Source: a virus. From it: a stretch of 64,000 nucleotides of DNA. Shown one piece after another: positions 34,797 to 57,518 of this stretch. The notes below the pieces were generated by a model. The model was given only the letters and a program-made list of their open reading frames with translations. It had not been told where the DNA came from and did not search any database. The first letter of the stretch is position 1; every line of letters begins with the position of its first letter. Where the stretch lies: the IMG/VR virus record IMGVR_UViG_3300025087_000044, positions 35,114 to 99,113 of that record; one strand, written 5' to 3'. Both the position numbers and the translations under genes were made by a program.

Positions 34797-36734
34797 ATGA
34801 AACCAACAATAGGATTCGTAGGGCAAGGGTTCATAGGTTCAGCTTACTCTGATGACTTTGAAAGGAGGGGGTATAAAGTCATCAGATATAGTTTAGATAA
34901 GTTTGTTGAAAACAAGGAAAAGATTGCTGAGTGCGATATTACGTTTATTGCAGTCCCTACGCCCTCAACTCCTGACGGGTTTGATTATTCCATAGTTGAG
35001 AACGTGTTGCAGCTTATCGGTAAAGAAAAGATTGCTGTCATAAAGTCAACTGTTCTGCCGGGAACTACTGAAAAACTGCAAGAAAAGTATCCTGATATTT
35101 ACTTGTTTCATTCGCCAGAGTTTTTGACTGAAAAGACTGCTATTTATGACGCAGCCAATCCTGCAAGAAACATAGTTGGATATACCGAGAAATCATTTTC
35201 CAAATCACAGAATGTAATGAATGTATTGCCTCCTGCTCCATTTGAATCAATCGTTCCTGTTAAAGAGGCTGAACTAGTAAAGTATGCAGGAAACTGCTGG
35301 TTCTATTTTAAGATTGTGTTTATGAATACTGTTTATGATTTGAGCCAAAAGTTAGGTATTGATTACGAGAGCGTTATCAACATGATGGCAGCTGACAAGC
35401 GAATAGGCAGAAGTCATCTTGACGTTGTCCATCAGGGTGGCAGAGGAGCAGGTGGCCGCTGTTTATTGCCGGACACTAAAATAATTACAGAAAAAGGAAT
35501 TAAAAACATTTGTGATATTGAAATTGGCGAGAGAGTGCTGACTCACACTGGAGTATTTAAAAAGGTAATCAATACTTCAAAAAGAGAAATCAATGAATTG
35601 ATAAATGTAATTAAGTGTCAGGGTACTCAGCCGTTTTATGTGACAAATGAGCACCCTGTATTTTCAGCTTTATCGAATAGAAAATATTGTGGTGTTAAAA
35701 AAAGAAAATTAACTAATGGAAACAAAGACAAGATAAAGTTAGATTTTAATTTATCAGAAAGTCTTAGTATTGGAGACTATATTTGTTTCCCAAAGTTTGT
35801 TCAAAAATCAGTTAGTTTTAAGATAGATGGATTAGAATTAAAATCAGAGCAAGATAAACTAGATTTTATGAGATTGGCTGGGTATTATATAGCTGAAGGT
35901 TGCAATGACAGAAAAAGAGTTAGTTTTGGGTTTAATATAAACGAGGTTGAGTATCACAAAGATGTTACTGGCATAATAAAGAGACTATTTGATTATGATG
36001 CGTGCATCAATAAAGATGTTAAACGTCACCAATATAATATAAGAATCAATTCTGTTAAAATGTCTAAAATGTTTCGAGATTTGTTCGATAGACTTTCTCA
36101 AAATATACACATACCAAACGAATGGCTATTGTTTGAAGATAAGTATCTTAAAGAATTGTTGAGAGGCTATTTTAGGGGAGATGGAAGTTTTAGTAAAAAC
36201 GTTTTTACTTCTGCCACTATATCATTTAAGCTTGACGAGCAACTAAGGTTCTTGCTTTATCGTTTTGGGATAGTTTACAATTCTCATCACAAGAATGAAA
36301 AGGTTGACAAGAATGGACTGTGTCATAAAAAATCTTATTATATTTGTGTTAGCAGTATAGATGAAACTCAGAAGATAGCAGATATTACTGGTTATGATTT
36401 TGTAAAAGATGTTAAACTGATTAGGCATACTGCTTTTGTTAAGGATAATTATTTGCTTAGGTCTATCAGAGAGATAGAAAAAATTAAATATACTGGTTTG
36501 GTTTATAATCTTGAAGTAGAAGGTGATAATTCCTACGTTGGACTAGATGGAGTTTGGCACAATTGCTTCGTCAAGGATATGGCAGCGTATGCAGAGATGT
36601 ATGAGGAGTATGTTGGCGAAGACATGATGGGCAATGATTTGCTTATTATAATCCAGCAAAAGAACATAGAATTGTTGCGTTCTTCTGGTAAGGATTTGGA
36701 TTTGGTTAATGGAGTTTACGGAGAAAAAATATGA
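34797..36734 (+). CDS. ugd: short UDP-glucose/GDP-mannose dehydrogenase with intein
   Basis: GQGFIG, FIAVPTP, KSTVLPGTT, SPEFL, AELVKY.GN, GAGGR//CFVKD. Confidence 0.9.
   Translation: MKPTIGFVGQGFIGSAYSDDFERRGYKVIRYSLDKFVENKEKIAECDITFIAVPTPSTPDGFDYSIVENVLQLIGKEKIAVIKSTVLPGTTEKLQEKYPDIYLFHSPEFLTEKTAIYDAANPARNIVGYTEKSFSKSQNVMNVLPPAPFESIVPVKEAELVKYAGNCWFYFKIVFMNTVYDLSQKLGIDYESVINMMAADKRIGRSHLDVVHQGGRGAGGRCLLPDTKIITEKGIKNICDIEIGERVLTHTGVFKKVINTSKREINELINVIKCQGTQPFYVTNEHPVFSALSNRKYCGVKKRKLTNGNKDKIKLDFNLSESLSIGDYICFPKFVQKSVSFKIDGLELKSEQDKLDFMRLAGYYIAEGCNDRKRVSFGFNINEVEYHKDVTGIIKRLFDYDACINKDVKRHQYNIRINSVKMSKMFRDLFDRLSQNIHIPNEWLLFEDKYLKELLRGYFRGDGSFSKNVFTSATISFKLDEQLRFLLYRFGIVYNSHHKNEKVDKNGLCHKKSYYICVSSIDETQKIADITGYDFVKDVKLIRHTAFVKDNYLLRSIREIEKIKYTGLVYNLEVEGDNSYVGLDGVWHNCFVKDMAAYAEMYEEYVGEDMMGNDLLIIIQQKNIELLRSSGKDLDLVNGVYGEKI
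35460..36563 (+). mobile_element. 368-aa intein with LAGLIDADG endonuclease
   Basis: CLLPDT...TNEHP...LAGYYIAEG...LRGYFRGDG...VYNLEVEGDNSY...WHN|C. Confidence 0.92.
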
Positions 36735-49614: not shown

Positions 49615-49633
49615 ATAATAATTGTATAACAGT

Positions 49634-52327
49634 ATGGACAAGAAATACTTAAAAGCGATAACCAAAAGACAGAAGAATGGTTCACTGCTTGCGATTGCGT
49701 CAACTGAGAATAAGGATAGAGTCGGAGATTCTTTGAAAGCTGAAGATTGGGATTTTAAGCATTTTCAAAATAATCCAGTCCTTCAGGCAGGCCATGATTA
49801 CAGGCCTCAGTATACGATTGGAATTGCAGAGAATCTTAAGGTTGAGAACGGACAAGTTACGTTCACGCCAAAGTTTCATAACATCACAAAACTTGCCCAA
49901 GAGATAAGCAAGATGTATGAAGAGGGTTTTTTGACTGCTTGGAGTGTTGGCTTTATTCCCAAGGAATCTAACGTAGAAATCAAGAAGAATCAACTGCTTG
50001 AGGTTTCAGCAGTTGCCGTTCCTGCCAACCCTTATGCTTTGACTTCTTTAAAGAGTTGCAAGAAAGAATTGGAGAGTGTTGATAATGATGTTATAGAAAA
50101 TATAAAAGAGTGGGTAACTAAAGAATATGACGAGTTAACTGAACAGCCAGTCGAAGAGCCAGTTGTTGAAGCACCCGAAGAAGGTGTTGATGAAAAGATT
50201 TGGGATGATTCTGAAACAGAGGTAAGGTATAGAGTCAAAAACCCTGAATTATTCGAGCAAGATTCTTTTAGAACCATTGCCATAAAAGAAGACAAGCCAT
50301 CAATCAATGCTGTTATTGGAAAGCTCATCGGAGAAGAGTCAACAACTATCCAATCGCTTGTTTTCTCTAAAGATGAGGGCCGGACGTTAGAAGATGCGAA
50401 AACTTGGGTTGAAGAACATCCTGACATTAAAGCTATAGGAGAAGAGGACGTTCCATTGCCTGACGAAACGGTCCCTGAAGACATGCCAATGGATAAGCCT
50501 GCCGAAGACGCAGAAGAGTCTGAAAGCGATAAGCCTGAAATGATGAAGATGCAAACGGGAGAAACCAATGGACACACGCACGAGGCTGAGTTCGGTAAAG
50601 AATCTGGAAACGGAAAAACCAATGAAGTTGAAATGCACTATCATGACATTGAAAATTTTATTGTAAAAGAAGCTGGAGAAGTTGCTCACACTCATTCATT
50701 AGATGTTCAGCCTGAAGAGGGGAATGAAGATGAGGAGGTTGTGATAGAAGAGACTGGCTTGAGGGAGTTTAAGTATAAGGAGAGATGGAACAAGTCGTTA
50801 TCAAAATCGTTCGACATTGAAAATGCTCCGTCGATAACAAATAGCCCGATGTTTAAGATTTACACAAAGTATCTTGAGTGCAGCGTGAAGGACGTATTTG
50901 TTAATAGTACATTCGTTCCGTCTCCGATGATTGGAAATTACTTAAATGCTGTAAAGAATATATTGTCTGGATATAACTTGAAAGGCACTAGGGGATATGA
51001 TTTGTGGAGTGGAAATGAAATTCCACCATTATCTGAAGTCATTAAATTGAACTCATCTAGTTCAGACGACTTCCTTGTTCAAGGAACTCAGTATTACGAA
51101 AACGAAGGAAAGGGTTTTGTTGTACAGTATCAGCCAGTCTGGGGAGGAATGAGTGTCGACATATTGACTTCCAGAAATGACAAGGATTTCAATAAGAACA
51201 TAAAGAAGTTAATTGAAGATTACGCAGAGAAGAACAATAAACTAAAAGGAGAAATGTTTGCTCTAAGCGGTGAGTTCTTGGTTAAGACTGATGAACGGTT
51301 TGATGATATTGTGCTAGATGCAGTAGTTAAGAAATCAATCGTGAACACATCTAGTCAGATGGTTAAGAAGGGCATTGAGTTCGCCAGTCGAGGAATGATA
51401 TTCATGGGACCGCCAGGAACAGGGAAGACTAAAACGTGCAGAGCCATAATGAATAGTTCTGATTCTACGTTCATCTGGGTATCAAGCAAGGATTTAAGGG
51501 CTTACGGAGCGGTTGAATGTATAAGTTTGGCTTATTCTTTAGCTAGGAAGATTGCTCCTGCAATCATCTTGTTTGAAGATATTGATACATGGATTAAGGA
51601 TTATGTTATTGATGCGTTGAAGACTGAACTTGACGGGCTTAATTCCACCAAAGCTATCCTTACAATCCTTACGTCAAACAATCCTGAGAACCTGCCTGAT
51701 TCATTGATTGACAGACCAGGAAGATTCCATGAAGTGCTTGAATTCGGACTTCCTAATAAGGCATTGAGGTCAGAGATGATTGTAAAATTCATAGGAGATT
51801 CCATTGATTCAGTTGACACGGATAATCTTAACAAGGTTATTGATGACACAGAAGGAATGTCAGGTGCACATATTAAAGAGTTGGTTGAATACGCCAAAGT
51901 GATATCGGAAGAAGAAGCGGTCAGTCTTGATGTGGCTTTAGTAAAGAGTCTTGACAAGATAAAGAAACAGAGAGAGTTGATAAGCACTATACAGTCAAAG
52001 GCATTTAATCTGAAATTAAAGGAAGGAAGAGTATTGTCAACTAAAAACATTGAAGTAATTAACCAAGCGATAACTGCTCAAAAGAACTCAGTTCAGGTAC
52101 TTGAGAAACTTTTAGAAGAGTCATCAGCAATGAATGACGCTTCCAAAGCTCAAAAACCCTTTAACAAGAACGAGAGTTTAGCTAAAGGTCGGACAGAACC
52201 CCAAAAACGGATGGAGCAGAAAACCATAGGTCAGATGGAGACATCAGACCAAATAGTTTTACGGGTTCTACAAAAAATAGCGGGGCAATCTTGCTACGCT
52301 TTAAACAAGTTGAATAGAAAAATATGA
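49634..52327 (+). CDS. HK97 prohead protease fused to acidic/His-rich linker and AAA+ ATPase
   Basis: ASTE..DR.GD, NPVL..H, SVGF, LLEVSAVAVPANP; GPPGTGKT, ILFEDID, TSN, DRPGRF. Confidence 0.88.
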   Translation: MDKKYLKAITKRQKNGSLLAIASTENKDRVGDSLKAEDWDFKHFQNNPVLQAGHDYRPQYTIGIAENLKVENGQVTFTPKFHNITKLAQEISKMYEEGFLTAWSVGFIPKESNVEIKKNQLLEVSAVAVPANPYALTSLKSCKKELESVDNDVIENIKEWVTKEYDELTEQPVEEPVVEAPEEGVDEKIWDDSETEVRYRVKNPELFEQDSFRTIAIKEDKPSINAVIGKLIGEESTTIQSLVFSKDEGRTLEDAKTWVEEHPDIKAIGEEDVPLPDETVPEDMPMDKPAEDAEESESDKPEMMKMQTGETNGHTHEAEFGKESGNGKTNEVEMHYHDIENFIVKEAGEVAHTHSLDVQPEEGNEDEEVVIEETGLREFKYKERWNKSLSKSFDIENAPSITNSPMFKIYTKYLECSVKDVFVNSTFVPSPMIGNYLNAVKNILSGYNLKGTRGYDLWSGNEIPPLSEVIKLNSSSSDDFLVQGTQYYENEGKGFVVQYQPVWGGMSVDILTSRNDKDFNKNIKKLIEDYAEKNNKLKGEMFALSGEFLVKTDERFDDIVLDAVVKKSIVNTSSQMVKKGIEFASRGMIFMGPPGTGKTKTCRAIMNSSDSTFIWVSSKDLRAYGAVECISLAYSLARKIAPAIILFEDIDTWIKDYVIDALKTELDGLNSTKAILTILTSNNPENLPDSLIDRPGRFHEVLEFGLPNKALRSEMIVKFIGDSIDSVDTDNLNKVIDDTEGMSGAHIKELVEYAKVISEEEAVSLDVALVKSLDKIKKQRELISTIQSKAFNLKLKEGRVLSTKNIEVINQAITAQKNSVQVLEKLLEESSAMNDASKAQKPFNKNESLAKGRTEPQKRMEQKTIGQMETSDQIVLRVLQKIAGQSCYALNKLNRKI

Positions 52328-55300
52328 GTAAGAAAATTACAATCAACGGTAAAACCTACATCGAAGATGAGGGAGCCGCTCCTGAAACAACGGAGGAAGA
52401 AGTGAAGGAAGAAGGTGTAAGCGAGGAAGTGATTGACGAAACAGCACAGAAGATTCTCAAATCCTTGGGTATTGATGAGTTGAGAAAGTCAATTGCTGAG
52501 CTCAAACAGGCCACAAGCAAAGATAACGGGATTGACGCTAAGACCGCCTCTCTAATTGACCTTGCAGGCTTGATGAAGAAAGATGTCAATCAGTTGACAG
52601 TACAAGAGAAAATCATCGGATTCTTTCAGGCCATGGTTCAGAACAACCAGACCGTCATGAAAGCTTTGTCCGAGGGTTAGATAGCAGAAGCCCTCATTAA
52701 AATCGGTGAATTGCTGGGAACTCCTTTTTCAAAGGACAATCAGCAGCCAAGCTTTCGCTTAAATGGCGACTGAAGGTTCAACGACTAGGTCTTGAAACTG
52801 CGTATAGCAGAATATAACAGACCCAAGAGTGCCGATTACTAGCTCGTTAACAATTAAACTTGACTAATTCTCATAATTACTTTAAAATTATTGTATAATA
52901 ATTAAATTGTATTTATGAGAAAGATTCTCCAAAAGATAAAAACTGCCAGAGGAATTGGCTATGTAATGGAATGCGTTAATTGTCATAAGCCTTTCAGAAT
53001 AAAAAAATGGGATTATGACAATTTAAGAAAGGGAACTTATTGTTCTAACAGCTGTCGAGGTGAGTATCAACGTGTTTCTCTTGTTGGAAAACTTAATCCT
53101 AATTGGAAGGGTGGAAAGGTTCAGATAAAATGTATGGTTTGCGGAACAAGGGTTATGATTAAAGTTAAAGATGCAAAAAGGGGTGGTAAGTATTGTAGCA
53201 AACGGTGTAAAGACTATGACAACAGTAGAGTTGTTAAAATGAATTACGCAAACAATCCTGGACTAAGAGACAAGACAAAGCACGTTGGCGATAAAAACGG
53301 AAGATGGCTGTGTGGAAAGTCGTTTGAACCTTATACAACCTCTTTTAACGAACATACTAAGAACATTGTTAAAGACAGAGACAATAGAGTCTGTATGATT
53401 TGTGGAGTTAACGAAAAAGACCTAAGAGAGTCTTTAAACGTTCATCACATTGATTATGATAAAAAGAATAGCAACATTAACAATCTCATTTCATTGTGTA
53501 ATGTGTGTCATTCTAAAACAAATTCAAACAGAGAGTATTGGAGAAATTATTTGTCAAGTTTAATTGTTAACTAGCAGTAATGATATAGTCTGAACTGCAT
53601 AGTAATATGCAGATGCAACAAAATTAAAAAAGTTGCGATAACATAATGACTGCTGCCGATGGAGGATATCTTTTCCCTAAACGATTCATTGGGGCATACT
53701 AAATAAGTATGAAAATTGGGTGAACTGCTGGAACGTCCACTAAGTGGATAATCAGCAACCAAGCTAAAGGTTAAAATCTTTAGAAGGCTCAACGACTAGA
53801 GGGTGAAACTTGTTAAAAGAATATAATCCCTCCACGAGTGCCCAACTTCTTGAATTTGTAGCTGATATGTTGTATAATGTAATTATAATAAATAATTAAA
53901 TTATATGCGTAAAGGCTCTAAGATGACATTAGAACAGAGAAAAAGAGTTAGTCTTGCTCATTTTGGACATCCTGCATGGAATAAGGGTAAAAAGATGCCA
54001 GAATGGTGGGGAAGATTGTCTTCAGAAAGAGTATTAGCTGGAATAGGAGGAATGAAGGGAAGACATCACTCAGACAAGACCAAAGAAAAACAGAGAAAAT
54101 CCAATAAGACAAAACTACTTTGGCAAAATCCTGATTATAGAAAGATGATGTCCGAAAAGCACAAATGGCTTACTGGAAAAAATAATCCTGCTTATATTGA
54201 CGGAAGAAAGCCTCTAGTAATGAGAGTAAGAAATTCAGAAAAATATGAGAAATGGATTAAGTCTGTTTTCGAGAGAGATGATTACACTTGTCAAGACTGC
54301 AACGTTAGAGGTGGTAAATTAGAAGCACATCACATCAAAGGTTTTTCTAAGATATTTTCAGAAAATAACTTTAAAACCTTTGAGCAAGTAATGGACTGTG
54401 AAGAAATGTGGAATATGGACAATGGATTAACTCTCTGTAAAAAATGTCATAGCAAGATAAGTACAAGAAGATGATATAGTCTGACCACTAGATATACATA
54501 AAACTAGTGAAGCAAAAGATAAAGAACTTTTGCGATAACATAAATGGATGAGTTTGTTTCCGAGGTAGTTCGCGATTTGTCCAACGAGATGTATATGCGT
54601 AAACAACATTGCGCCCTTGCGTAAGCAAGGATAATCGGGTTAAACGGGGAAACTCCCTAACAAGGACAATCCCGTAGCAAGCATGAGGTTAAAATCTTAT
54701 GACGCTCTAACGACTAGATAGTGAACCTCTTAATTGAGAACATAACCTATCCACGAGTGCCCGACATTAGCTCTTTACAACTTAGATAGTTGAGACTCAA
54801 GAAATTTGATATGTTCTTGAAGACATTTAATAAATGTTTTCTCACCATTTCCCTTTTTGTCTGTTATCACAAGGTTTTCTGGGCGATTGTCATTTCTAAT
54901 GCCGTTTAGATGGTGAACAACATCTTGTTTAGTTAATTGCTTGTTATATTTAATAGAAGCTATTAAACGATGTTCGGGAACGTATCCATTAGAATCTGAT
55001 AAATAATGATTACGCATTTTTACTTTAACATATCCGTCTGCTGTATTAAACTTGCCCCCACGCCACATTGGATTACCTGATAACATCTGTCTTTTAGAGA
55101 TTGTTGCTCCACGTTCAGGAAGTTTATAGTTACAAGATGCGCATCTAAGATTTTTCTTGGGAATTTGTTTATTGCAATCAATGCAAAAATTAACAATCTT
55201 TTTTCTCAACATATTATCTAAGTTTAATTATTATATATATATTGTATATGTATAATCATTATAAGTAAAGTTCAAGTGAAGATATAGTCTGAACGCTACA

Positions 55301-57518
55301 GTAATGTAGTGACATAGAAGATAAAGAACTTCTATTATAACAAAATTGAATGAAGTTACGGTGGTTCCGATGAAGAGGGACATCATGAAGATTCCGACAT
55401 TGACATCTGGCCCGAAAGTAGCTTGGACGGCTGAGAATGCCGCGAAAAGCACAACGACAGCTACGTTCGATGAGGCGACTTTGACCGTCAAAAAGATGGC
55501 CGCCATAAAAATACATTGTGGCACTATACTGAAAAGTATAGTTAAAAATTCGGTAAATTGCTGGAAAACCCTGTTTCAAAACAGGACAATCAGCAGCCAA
55601 GCTTTGGCTTAAATGGCCAATGAAGGTTCAGAGACTAGGTGGTGAAACTATATATATAGAATATATCCACTCACGAAAACCGAATATCTATTTTGAACTT
55701 TGACAATTGACAATTACACTCTCATTATATATAATACAATTATTTATAAACTAATTGTGATATTGTATGAGAGAAAGAATAATCCTTGATAAAAAGACAA
55801 ACAGACTTGGAACGCTAAGTTATTTTGTGAAATGTGTTATGTGCGGAAAAGAGTTCTGGATAACAGAAAGTCAATTCAAAGACGGAAGAGGCCTTTACTG
55901 TTCACAGAAATGTTATCACTCTGACCCATTAGTAATTGATAATTTCAACAAAAGTTTTGCTTCGTTTAAAAAGGGAAAAGCTTCATGGAGTAAAGGGTTG
56001 ACTAAAGAAACTAGTATAATTATAAAACGAATGGCAGAAAAAAGAATTGGTGATAAGCATCCGTTATGGAAAGGAGGAAGAGCCAAAATGACTGGCGGAT
56101 ATATCGGTGTATTGATTCCAGAGCATCCAGATGCCAATGTTAACGGACGAGTTTTAGAACATAGATTGGTAATGGAAAAGAAACTTGGAAGAAGACTTGT
56201 TCATTACGAAGAGGTCCATCATAGAAACGGAATTAAAACTGATAACAGACCAGAAAACTTAGAGCTTGTATTGAAGTACAAACATCAAGGAGAAATTCAA
56301 TGTCCATATTGTCAATGTATGTTTAAAATAAAATAGATAATGATATAGTCCGACCTTACAGGAAACTGTAAGAAGCAGAAGATAAAGAGCTTTTGCGATA
56401 ACAAATTGAATGTACATCTCGGACGAATTGGTAGAAGATTCTGATAGCATCGACATCGTTAAGTTCATTGTTACTTTGTTCTCTGAAGCGATTGGAACCG
56501 AAGAAGACCGTGTTATCACAGCGGGTAACGGAACTACTGAGCCTACCGGCTACAATACTTCCGCCAATCCTGGAACGATAGCATGTTCTGGCAACTTGAG
56601 TTATGCCAACATGGTAGACCTCGAGTACACTTTGCCTGCGAAATATCATCGCAATGCAAAGTTCTTCGCGCACAGGAACAACATTCGAGAACTCCGCAAG
56701 ATGGTGGATTCCAATTCACGTCCTTTGTGGAGCGACCCGATTGCTCCTGGCCAGCCCCCGACATGGCACGGATTAAGTGGTAGTCCCTGTTATGCGTAAT
56801 CATAACAGAAAAGACGGTGAATTGCTGGAAAACCCTGTTTCAAAACAGGGCAATCAGCAGCCAAGCTTTACCAGTAATGGTTTAGAAGGTCCAACGACTA
56901 GGGGATGAGTCCACGTAGTGGATGATAATTTCCCCCAAGAGTGCCGTCCACCTTGAAAAAGGTGATGATATAGTCTGAACACTGACTATAAATAAAATCA
57001 GTGAAGCAAGAAATAAAGAGTTCTTGCGATAACATAATTGACCAAGTCGTTGAAGACAACAATCTGCCTGAGTCAGTTATCGCCTTTGGCGATTTGAAGC
57101 AGGCTTATTGGTTGGGCGACCGCAAGTCTATGACAGTGAAGGTAACTCAGGACACTGAGACTGCATTAACTGGTACATCGTACAAGTGCAGTATAAAGAG
57201 GATGAATTGCTGGGAAGCCCTGAAATGGGTTATCAGCAGCCTAGCTTTGCCAGTAATGGCTTAGAAGGTTCAGAGCATAGAGTCCGAGTCCCTCCGGGAC
57301 GATAATGACTCCACGAGCGTCCTCAATCCATTAGTTTAATGGATTATGATATATGCCGACCACCAGATATGAATAAAACTGGTGAAAAGTCAGATAAAAA
57401 ACTGGCTTGTTAAAAATATTTAGTTGTCCATGACCAAACAGCTGTCCGTGTTGTTTCTCGCATTGCAGGTAATGTAGTTAATCCGTACGCTATCAAGAAA
57501 CTTACAAACATTCCGTAG
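52324..57518 (+). CDS. HK97-fold major capsid protein, spliced from 7 exons (393 aa)
   Basis: join(52324..52677,53649..53678,54547..54600,55349..55506,56409..56773,57041..57166,57424..57518) = 1182 nt open frame: ...ALSEG-TAADGGYLFP-DEFVSEVVRDL...MR-NEVTVVPM...KKMAAI-MYISDELVEDS...WHGY-QVVEDNNLP...FGDL...TAF-VHDQTAVRVVSR...NIP*. Confidence 0.93.
52678..53648 (+). mobile_element. group I intron 1 of capsid gene (971 nt, HNH ORF in P8)
   Basis: P1 GAGGGU/GCCCUC; AATCAGCAG; AACGACTAG; GATATAGTC; terminal G 53648. Confidence 0.92.
52915..53574 (+). CDS. intron-encoded HNH homing endonuclease
   Basis: zinc-finger repeats, NPNWKGG; CMICG...VHHIDY.K.N....NLISLCNVCH. Confidence 0.88.
   Translation: MRKILQKIKTARGIGYVMECVNCHKPFRIKKWDYDNLRKGTYCSNSCRGEYQRVSLVGKLNPNWKGGKVQIKCMVCGTRVMIKVKDAKRGGKYCSKRCKDYDNSRVVKMNYANNPGLRDKTKHVGDKNGRWLCGKSFEPYTTSFNEHTKNIVKDRDNRVCMICGVNEKDLRESLNVHHIDYDKKNSNINNLISLCNVCHSKTNSNREYWRNYLSSLIVN
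53679..54546 (+). mobile_element. group I intron 2 (868 nt, HNH ORF in P8)
   Basis: P1 CCCU/GGGG; P10 AUUCAU/AUGAGU; core motifs; terminal G 54546. Confidence 0.9.
53905..54474 (+). CDS. intron-encoded NUMOD3-HNH endonuclease
   Basis: WNKGKK, GRHHSDKTKEK; VFERDDYTCQDC...HHIK...LCKKCH. Confidence 0.88.
   Translation: MRKGSKMTLEQRKRVSLAHFGHPAWNKGKKMPEWWGRLSSERVLAGIGGMKGRHHSDKTKEKQRKSNKTKLLWQNPDYRKMMSEKHKWLTGKNNPAYIDGRKPLVMRVRNSEKYEKWIKSVFERDDYTCQDCNVRGGKLEAHHIKGFSKIFSENNFKTFEQVMDCEEMWNMDNGLTLCKKCHSKISTRR
54601..55348 (+). mobile_element. group I intron 3 (748 nt, antisense HNH ORF in P8)
   Basis: P1 GCGU/GCGC; AACGACTAG; AAGATATAGTCTG; terminal G 55348. Confidence 0.9.
54775..55212 (-). CDS. 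intron-encoded HNH endonuclease on the antisense strand
   Basis: YVPEHRL...VHHLNGIRNDNRPENL. Confidence 0.85.
   Translation of the reverse strand: MLRKKIVNFCIDCNKQIPKKNLRCASCNYKLPERGATISKRQMLSGNPMWRGGKFNTADGYVKVKMRNHYLSDSNGYVPEHRLIASIKYNKQLTKQDVVHHLNGIRNDNRPENLVITDKKGNGEKTFIKCLQEHIKFLESQLSKL
55507..56408 (+). mobile_element. group I intron 4 (902 nt, HNH ORF in P8)
   Basis: P1 GCCAU/GUGGC; P10 UACAUU/AAUGUA; core motifs; terminal G 56408. Confidence 0.92.
55767..56336 (+). CDS. intron-encoded HNH endonuclease
   Basis: LEHRLVME..LGR...VHHRNGIKTDNRPENL. Confidence 0.88.
   Translation: MRERIILDKKTNRLGTLSYFVKCVMCGKEFWITESQFKDGRGLYCSQKCYHSDPLVIDNFNKSFASFKKGKASWSKGLTKETSIIIKRMAEKRIGDKHPLWKGGRAKMTGGYIGVLIPEHPDANVNGRVLEHRLVMEKKLGRRLVHYEEVHHRNGIKTDNRPENLELVLKYKHQGEIQCPYCQCMFKIK
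56774..57040 (+). ncRNA. group I intron 5 (267 nt, no ORF)
   Basis: P1 GGAU/GUCC; short P8 CACCTT-GAAA-AAGGTG; terminal G 57040. Confidence 0.92.
57167..57423 (+). ncRNA. group I intron 6 (257 nt, no ORF, variant P7)
   Basis: P1 ACUGCAU/GUGCAGU; P7 GCAUA/UAUGC; P8 AATCCATTA/TAATGGATT; terminal G 57423. Confidence 0.88.

Follow-up and report, generated by a model that had tools for sequence, protein, structure and literature searches.

The 64,000-nt window examined here (IMG/VR virus record IMGVR_UViG_3300025087_000044, positions 35,114 to 99,113 of that record) contains an HK97-type major capsid gene at 52324-57518 on the plus strand that is divided into seven exons by six group I introns. 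The introns make up 77% of the span of the gene, all six falling within 1.18 kb of coding sequence, and two of the internal exons are 30 and 54 nt long. This report is concerned with these two micro-exons and the three large introns that flank them. The gene is recognizable by PF05065 matches above the Pfam cut-off on three separate open reading frame (ORF) pieces that correspond to exons 4, 5 and 6 (1.6e-18 for exon 5), and its spliced product is colinear with homologues of 395-422 aa in tblastn searches. One of these homologues, P0002, resembles solved HK97-family capsids (e.g., 6TBA at 1e-21), the nearest solved structure being the capsid of the Rhodobacter gene transfer agent.

The exon map, like the splice-site rules, pairings, fold covariation, endonuclease lineages and intron distribution described below, was read from the sequence. 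Exons were placed by tblastn of the uninterrupted homologues P0001 (402 aa) and P0002 (395 aa) against the window; in a protein search these are 83% and 75% identical, respectively, to the window protein in exon 5, and the intron status of P0001-P0005 was judged from ORF length and ends. Independently of that placement, the junctions were searched for the combination of a T before the intron, a G at the intron end and the top protein score, and this search gave a single solution at each of the six junctions with no alternatives. Exon 1 (52324-52677; 354 nt, 118 aa) encodes the N-terminal part of the protein, ending ...KALSEG, and is followed by intron 1 (52678-53648; 971 nt), exon 2 (53649-53678; 30 nt), intron 2 (53679-54546; 868 nt), exon 3 (54547-54600; 54 nt) and intron 3 (54601-55348; 748 nt). 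The remainder of the gene, likewise on the plus strand and placed by both approaches, comprises exon 4 (55349-55506; 158 nt), intron 4 (55507-56408; 902 nt), exon 5 (56409-56773; 365 nt), the ORF-less intron 5 (56774-57040; 267 nt), exon 6 (57041-57166; 126 nt), the ORF-less intron 6 (57167-57423; 257 nt) and exon 7 (57424-57518; 95 nt including the stop codon). Together the seven exons total 1182 nt and form a 393-aa frame without an internal stop, and the phases of introns 1 to 6 are 0, 0, 0, 2, 1 and 1.

An initial annotation of this DNA had proposed micro-exons of 30 and 54 nt between large introns and had described introns 1 to 3 as all phase 0, and both proposals are borne out by the exon map. 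Exon 2 encodes TAADGGYLFP, identical at 10/10 residues to P0001 and P0002 and colinear with them, and exon 3 encodes DEFVSEVVRDLSNEMYMR, identical at 17/18 residues to P0002, which runs unbroken across both as ...KALSEG-TAADGGYLFP-DEFVGEVVRDLSNEMYMR-NEVTVV.... In an alignment of 36 sequences the residues of the two exons lie in the most conserved block of the family, with near-invariant E, F, E, M and R columns, and none of the 35 aligned homologues lacks the residues of exon 2 or exon 3. The colinear homologue match and the unique junctions confirm both micro-exons as real exons of the capsid gene. Taken with the evidence below, we consider it likely that they are ordinary constitutive exons, and that their small size results from the insertion of three separate mobile group I introns 30 and 54 bp apart.

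The first requirement of this explanation is that the inserts are indeed ribozymes. The Rfam model RF00028 matches all six inserts in the capsid gene and nothing else in the contig, with E-values of 4e-10 to 8e-3 in a 6-kb search. Relative to the gathering score of 50 bits, intron 5 (78.9) and intron 4 (59.4) score above, intron 1 (48.0) and intron 2 (47.8) fall slightly below, intron 6 reaches 30.3, and intron 3 is recovered as two halves of 23.5 and 27.3 bits; matches are split because endonuclease ORFs in the P8 loop break the models. A consensus fold was obtained with RNAalifold from ten ORF-less introns of the family (introns 5 and 6 of the window together with introns of relatives L012, L013, L039, L088, L089 and L142), and is a group I fold with P3, P4-P6, P7.1/7.2, P8 and P9, P7 not being writable in a nested structure. 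It contains 53 predicted pairs, 39 of which show compensatory changes on both sides. After removal of the ORFs from introns 1 to 4, a quick automatic alignment found 44, 46, 37, 39, 51 and 48 of the 53 pairs kept in introns 1 to 6, respectively. The low count for intron 3 is in part due to misalignment, as its P3 (UCGGG/CCCGA) and P4 (ACGGG/CCCGU) are compensated variants that were recovered by eye. The splice-site rule of a T before and a G at the end of the intron holds at all six junctions, and every P1 starts with a U.G pair. We infer from these features that all six inserts are genuine group I introns and that they would be self-splicing.

Each intron also carries a guide for its own exon ends. 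The guides were defined by the G opposite the splice-site U, with the bases 3' of this G taken as the P1 guide and the nine bases 5' of it as the P10 guide, and they were scored against every exon end and every exon start. In intron 1, the P10 guide AGCAG (52683-52687) and the P1 guide GCCCUC (52690-52695) each form 6 pairs, with a P10 energy of -7.8 kcal/mol. In intron 2, a P10 guide at 53683-53690 forms 8 pairs (-5.4 kcal/mol) and the P1 guide GGGG (53691-53694) forms 4, while in intron 3 the P10 guide CAUU (54607-54610) and the P1 guide GCGC (54611-54614) form 4 pairs each, the P10 being weak at -0.6 kcal/mol. The corresponding P1 and P10 pairs number 5 and 6 in intron 4 (-3.1 kcal/mol), 4 and 4 in intron 5 (-4.0 kcal/mol) and 7 and 4 in intron 6, where P10 is again weak (-1.0 kcal/mol). 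A P10 of 4-8 contiguous pairs is thus present in six of six introns, and the cognate P1 pairings of 4-7 pairs compare with mostly 1-3 pairs for non-cognate ones.

The pairing matrices agree with the proposal that each micro-exon pairs with the P10 guide of the upstream intron and the P1 guide of the downstream intron, and covariation in relatives points the same way. At the insertion site after coding-sequence nt 354, which is that of intron 1, guide and exon change together (AGCAG/CUGCU in the window, CAGCA/UGCUG in L142, CAGGA/UCCUG in L120 and GUGGCA/UGCCGC in L012), and at site 384, that of intron 2, L026 has UUCGUU with GACGAA where the others have UUCAUU with GAUGAR. In exon 2, nt 2-6 contact the P10 guide of intron 1 and nt 27-30 the P1 guide of intron 2, leaving 20 nt between them, and in exon 3, nt 1-8 contact the P10 guide of intron 2 and nt 51-54 the P1 guide of intron 3, with 42 nt between. 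The further suggestion that these shared pairings force an order of splicing did not hold up, as the two contacts in each micro-exon do not overlap and base pairing therefore imposes no order. Any order of splicing would instead come from the timing of transcription or from crowding.

An alternative to constitutive splicing is that a fraction of transcripts skip exon 3 (or exon 2) to give an in-frame, shorter capsid protein, either as a by-product or as an isoform that is used. As the initial annotation had noted, skipping would be in frame since introns 1 to 3 are all phase 0, so that loss of exon 2, exon 3 or both keeps the frame. For exon 3 a route is also conceivable, in that the guide UUCAUU of intron 2 is fully complementary to the beginning of exon 4 (AAUGAA; 6 Watson-Crick pairs, -3.1 kcal/mol), an energy equal to that of the cognate P10 of intron 4, and introns 2 and 3 resemble each other at their 3' ends (74% over 57 nt). 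There is precedent as well in adjacent group I introns of phage SIOphi, in a study that also cites Twort orf142 (PMC11878797). However, intron 2 pairs more strongly with its cognate exon 3 (8 pairs, -5.4 kcal/mol), and the skipped product would lack near-invariant residues that every one of the 35 homologues retains. Skipping of exon 2 guided by P10 was considered and rejected, as in the pairing matrices neither exon 3 nor exon 4 is complementary to the intron 1 guide. Skipping of exon 3 is therefore possible in principle but not favoured by the pairings, and its product, given the conservation of these residues, would probably be a defective by-product. Overall, we regard alternative splicing of the micro-exons as improbable and constitutive inclusion of both as the better description.

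Micro-exons of this kind are also found in relatives of the gene. In locus L142, a site-354 and a site-384 intron, both ORF-less and scoring 53.9 and 70.2 bits in Rfam, enclose the same 30-nt exon (nt 538-567). Its site-354 intron (L142:223-537) still has a short stretch similar to the 3' end of the intron 1 endonuclease gene of the window, and looks like a deletion derivative from which the endonuclease has been lost. In a second relative, L120 (locus L120:1080-3202), a site-354 and a site-373 intron are separated by an exon of 19 nt (nt 2193-2211). An HNH ORF is present in the site-354 intron, and the ORF of the site-373 intron has a beginning similar to that of a GIY-YIG enzyme; Rfam gave no match to either intron at E <= 0.01, and the introns and the 19-nt exon rest on junction logic, sequence motifs of the family and the endonuclease ORFs. 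The last ~70 nt of the two L120 introns are identical, which points to recent recombination between the neighbouring introns or to an effect of assembly.

These relatives bear on whether the array might be an artefact, that is, an assembly chimera of strains with single introns, or a decaying capsid pseudogene in a defective element. The 99-kb contig is assembled from a metagenome and is estimated to be 81% complete, and the presence of introns varies among related phages. On the other hand, the exons are all intact, in frame and retain the conserved residues, all guides are intact, and the four endonuclease ORFs are intact. In addition, any k-mer longer than 30 that spans exon 2 must include both intron ends, and L142, an independent contig from another sample, has the same layout of a site-354 intron, a 30-nt exon and a site-384 intron. 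An assembly chimera was judged unlikely on the basis of the intact exons, guides and ORFs together with the L142 layout, and we give the artefact explanation as a whole hardly any weight.

Introns 1 to 4 each contain an HNH endonuclease ORF in the P8 loop. The ORF of intron 1 (52915-53574, plus strand) matches PF01844 at 25.5 bits (cut-off 21.4), the HNH_2/NUMOD3 ORF of intron 2 (53905-54474, plus strand) matches PF13391 at 28.8 bits (cut-off 21), the antisense HNH_3 gene of intron 3 (54775-55212, minus strand; 145 aa) matches PF13392 at 27.9 bits (cut-off 24.8), and the HNH_3 ORF of intron 4 (55767-56336, plus strand) matches the same family at 38.2 bits. When compared with enzymes encoded in introns of relatives, the intron 2 enzyme shares 55-66% identity with its counterparts in six other introns at site 384, the intron 4 enzyme is 62-67% identical to site-596 enzymes, and the intron 1 enzyme is 58% identical to the site-354 enzyme of L120 over its N-terminal 129 residues. 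The nearest relative of the intron 3 enzyme is the ORF of a site-533 intron in L143, at 43%. By these sequence comparisons the endonuclease lineages track the insertion sites, with 354, 384 and 596 each having a lineage of its own.

Several further features of the endonuclease genes may be mentioned here. The intron 1 enzyme appears modular, in that the part matching the L120 enzyme (58%, 129 aa) consists of N-terminal zinc-ribbon-like repeats, while the HNH part at the C-terminus resembles an enzyme from a site-1087 intron of L127 (47% over 94 aa). In L151 (2200-2934) a site-596 endonuclease lies antisense and is 67% identical to the intron 4 enzyme of the window, which is on the sense strand. 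Together with the antisense gene of intron 3, this is evidently a sign that endonuclease genes can invert within P8. Sites resembling sigma-70 promoters lie right upstream of each endonuclease ORF (52860-52888, 53850-53878 and 55707-55735 on the plus strand; 55269-55241 on the minus strand), the best of them being TTGACA-17-TATAAT at 55707-55735 with a 12/12 match, and the region has 31 promoter-like sites compared with 16.9 +/- 4.2 in shuffled sequences. This suggests that the endonucleases may be transcribed independently of the capsid gene.

The distribution of introns among relatives addresses how the array arose. We gathered 169 related loci from viral, metagenome and genome collections; most are 43-69% identical to the window in exon 5, and four are more distant, at 25-31%. 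Among the 164 loci from the viral and metagenome collections there are 143 unique sequences, and the gene is uninterrupted or limited by the contig in 107 of these, while approximately 28 loci have one to five introns. At least 13 insertion sites are used across the family (coding-sequence nt 354, 373, 384, 438, about 520, 533, 596, 961, 1005, 1027, 1087, 1098 and 1109), and four of them (354, 373, 384 and 438) fall within the 84 bp that encode the SEGTAADGGYLFPDEF...MR block (52677-54601 in the window). The base before the site is a T in every intron-bearing allele, compared with 46-52% of empty alleles, and the ribozyme cores belong to one broad family with 55-75% identity and weak clustering by site. 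The closest homologues of the window, P0001 and P0002, are uninterrupted ORFs.

For a closer view of the micro-exon region, loci were clustered at 95% nucleotide identity and kept if they covered positions 354-438, which yielded 99 lineages. With respect to sites 354, 373 and 384, 84 of these lineages have no intron, nine have an intron at 384 only, two at 354 only and two at 373 only, one (L120) combines 354 with 373, and one (L142) combines 354 with 384. An intron at site 438, where intron 3 of the window resides, is found in none of the 99. Of the four relatives that have a site-354 intron, two (L120 and L142) therefore also have a neighbouring intron 19 or 30 bp away, but the association of the site-354 intron with a neighbour is weak (Fisher p = 0.08 without the window; 0.35 for 354 versus 384 alone).

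Five further relatives, L165-L169, come from prokaryote genome assemblies, all of them metagenome-assembled genomes, and are 47-61% identical and intron-less. Four are labelled Patescibacteria/candidate phyla radiation (CPR), among them one that lies at the terminus of a 386-kb contig and one on a Ca. Magasanikbacteria contig, and one is labelled Ca. Pacearchaeota. The phage family may infect CPR bacteria, or the assignments may reflect a binning error.

The initial annotation had also suggested that neighbouring homing sites would fall within each other's co-conversion tracts, such that introns 1 to 3 could spread as a block. In its fuller form this would make introns 1 to 3 and the two micro-exons (52678-55348, 2.67 kb) one mobile unit, in which homologies of 30 and 54 bp are too short to resolve repair and a cut at any of the sites leads to the copying of all three introns. 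During homing, resection leads to co-conversion of the exon sequence on the flanks (PMC2988022), three intact HNH genes are aimed at an 84-bp stretch, and L120 and L142 both have a site-354 intron together with a neighbour. This weak association is equally well explained by lineages that are rich in introns, however, as L142 has at least five, and the introns largely occur apart from one another in the 99 lineages (384 alone in nine, 354 alone in two, 354 and 384 together in one, 438 in the window only), a pattern of independence that the annotation itself had named as evidence against spread as a block. Each of the sites 354, 384 and 596 also has its own conserved endonuclease lineage, as described above. 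Moreover, the window and L142 show no sign of a recently shared block, since their introns at corresponding sites share only about 70-75% identity and 5 synonymous differences separate the micro-exons of the two.

A signature of recent co-conversion was not found between the window and other intron-bearing alleles, exons 2 and 3 differing from theirs at many synonymous DNA sites. Both near and distant DNA searches of the phage collection returned generic matches to intron cores and no close relative, and a degenerate pattern composed of the end of the intron, exon 2 and the start of intron 2 found nothing in viral_contigs (L142 is from metagenome_contigs). We consider an origin of the array as a composite cassette unlikely, if less so than the other alternatives discussed here. 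Still more doubtful than either cassette or skipping taken singly is a reading that joins them, in which a 2.7-kb cassette with three endonucleases would also generate a regulated capsid isoform lacking the 18 residues of exon 3 by way of the pairing between the intron 2 guide and exon 4. The idea of spread as a block is thus retained in part. Because co-conversion is well established and the exons of 30 and 54 bp are short, introns 1 to 3 would probably travel together in a real cross, while separate occurrence and site-specific endonuclease lineages indicate that the array was not derived as a block and is better understood as independent elements, each with its own target, that have accumulated in a hot spot.

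In the mechanism that we favour, three mobile introns landed at coding-sequence nt 354, 384 and 438, where conservation of the gene is highest, shortly downstream of the exon 1 sequence for the N-terminal part of the protein. Every one of these introns would bring its own ribozyme and its own guide, recognizing the last 4-6 nt of the preceding exon through P1, with U.G at the splice site, and the first 4-8 nt of the following exon through P10. The introns could then be spliced in any order, because the contacts sit at opposite ends of each micro-exon, the simplest order being 5' to 3' during transcription, and joining of all exons would yield the 393-aa capsid protein. In mixed infections, the HNH endonucleases would presumably nick alleles that lack the intron, and repair would copy the intron in. 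We infer splicing, endonuclease activity and homing from the features of the introns and their genes.

A number of observations weigh against this explanation. The contig was assembled from metagenome data, and how well the sequences on either side of the 54-nt exon are linked hinges on read or k-mer lengths. Splicing of all six introns is a prediction from sequence, and the P1 stems formed with the micro-exons are short, comprising 4 bp plus 2 intron pairs. Some non-cognate P1 pairings rival the cognate ones in length, namely those of intron 6 with the end of exon 3 (5 bp) and of intron 5 with the end of exon 1 (4 bp). For the guide of intron 3, pairing with exon 5 (-2.2 kcal/mol) is stronger than pairing with the cognate exon 4 (-0.6 kcal/mol), but skipping of exon 4 (158 nt) would break the frame. 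Finally, intron 3 is weak in Rfam and has no counterpart at its site in the 99 lineages, and for these two reasons its competence is the least certain of the six.

Comparable arrangements have been described in other phages. In Staphylococcus phage Twort, orf142 is reported to contain three similar group I introns, with exon skipping (Landthaler and Shub 1999, summarized in PMC3073962 and PMC11878797). As in orf142, related group I introns lie close together in a late structural gene of a phage, and short internal exons and cross-compatible ribozymes make skipping possible in both. The capsid gene differs from orf142, a tail tube gene with three introns, in having six introns, four of which contain HNH genes, one of them antisense, and its splicing is predicted. 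In phage SIOphi, experiments have shown skipping between adjacent group I introns, in which the 5' site of the upstream intron is joined to the 3' site of its downstream neighbour (PMC11878797). The genes in that study function in DNA metabolism and packaging, and the introns were said to avoid other gene classes, whereas here a capsid gene of an unrelated, uncultured phage is the host.

The crAss-like phages provide another parallel, as the capsid gene of the Zeta group is split into five fragments (Yutin et al. 2021, PMC7886860). There too, in metagenome-assembled genomes, several group I introns that contain endonuclease genes break up a major capsid gene; the window represents a different lineage with a PF05065 capsid, six introns and the standard code, and the crAss-like paper did not include an analysis of micro-exon pairings. 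High intron loads are also known for Jug phages (PMC12880540). The DNA polymerase introns of SPO1 and SP82, with I-HmuI and I-HmuII, and the td, nrdB and nrdD introns of T4 occur one per gene (PMC2988022) and, like introns 1 to 4 here, are phage group I introns with an endonuclease gene in a peripheral loop. By analogy with these systems, a rival allele would be expected to be nicked or cleaved and its flanking markers co-converted, with marker exclusion. Unlike SPO1, SP82 and T4, the window has several endonuclease targets within 84 bp, so that recognition sites and conversion tracts must overlap.

Beyond phages, the cox1 genes of fungal mitochondria contain many group I introns separated by very short exons, independent mobile introns having piled up in the conserved core of this essential gene. 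Splicing in that organellar system is assisted by maturases, in contrast to the present case of a bacteriophage with HNH-type endonucleases.

Immediately upstream of the capsid gene is an ORF of 901 aa (49622-52327, plus strand) whose stop codon overlaps the capsid start codon. It has a weak match to the prohead-protease domain PF04586 (residues 80-143) and a clear AAA ATPase domain, PF00004 (residues 592-709).

With precedents in Twort, Bastillevirinae and crAss-like phages, the arrangement is not new in kind. It is an unusually dense example from a different phage lineage, and leaves current understanding unchanged because such arrangements have already been described in other phages. As a compact natural test bed, the locus brings together three full-size ribozymes with intact endonuclease genes, 30 and 54 nt apart, in an essential gene whose product is easily scored. 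It could be used to measure the independence with which neighbouring introns are spliced, the rate of skipping when guides are cross-compatible, and the reach of co-conversion. The map of insertion sites across the family, with at least 13 sites and four of them within 84 bp, shows conserved segments of the capsid gene becoming hot spots for selfish elements.

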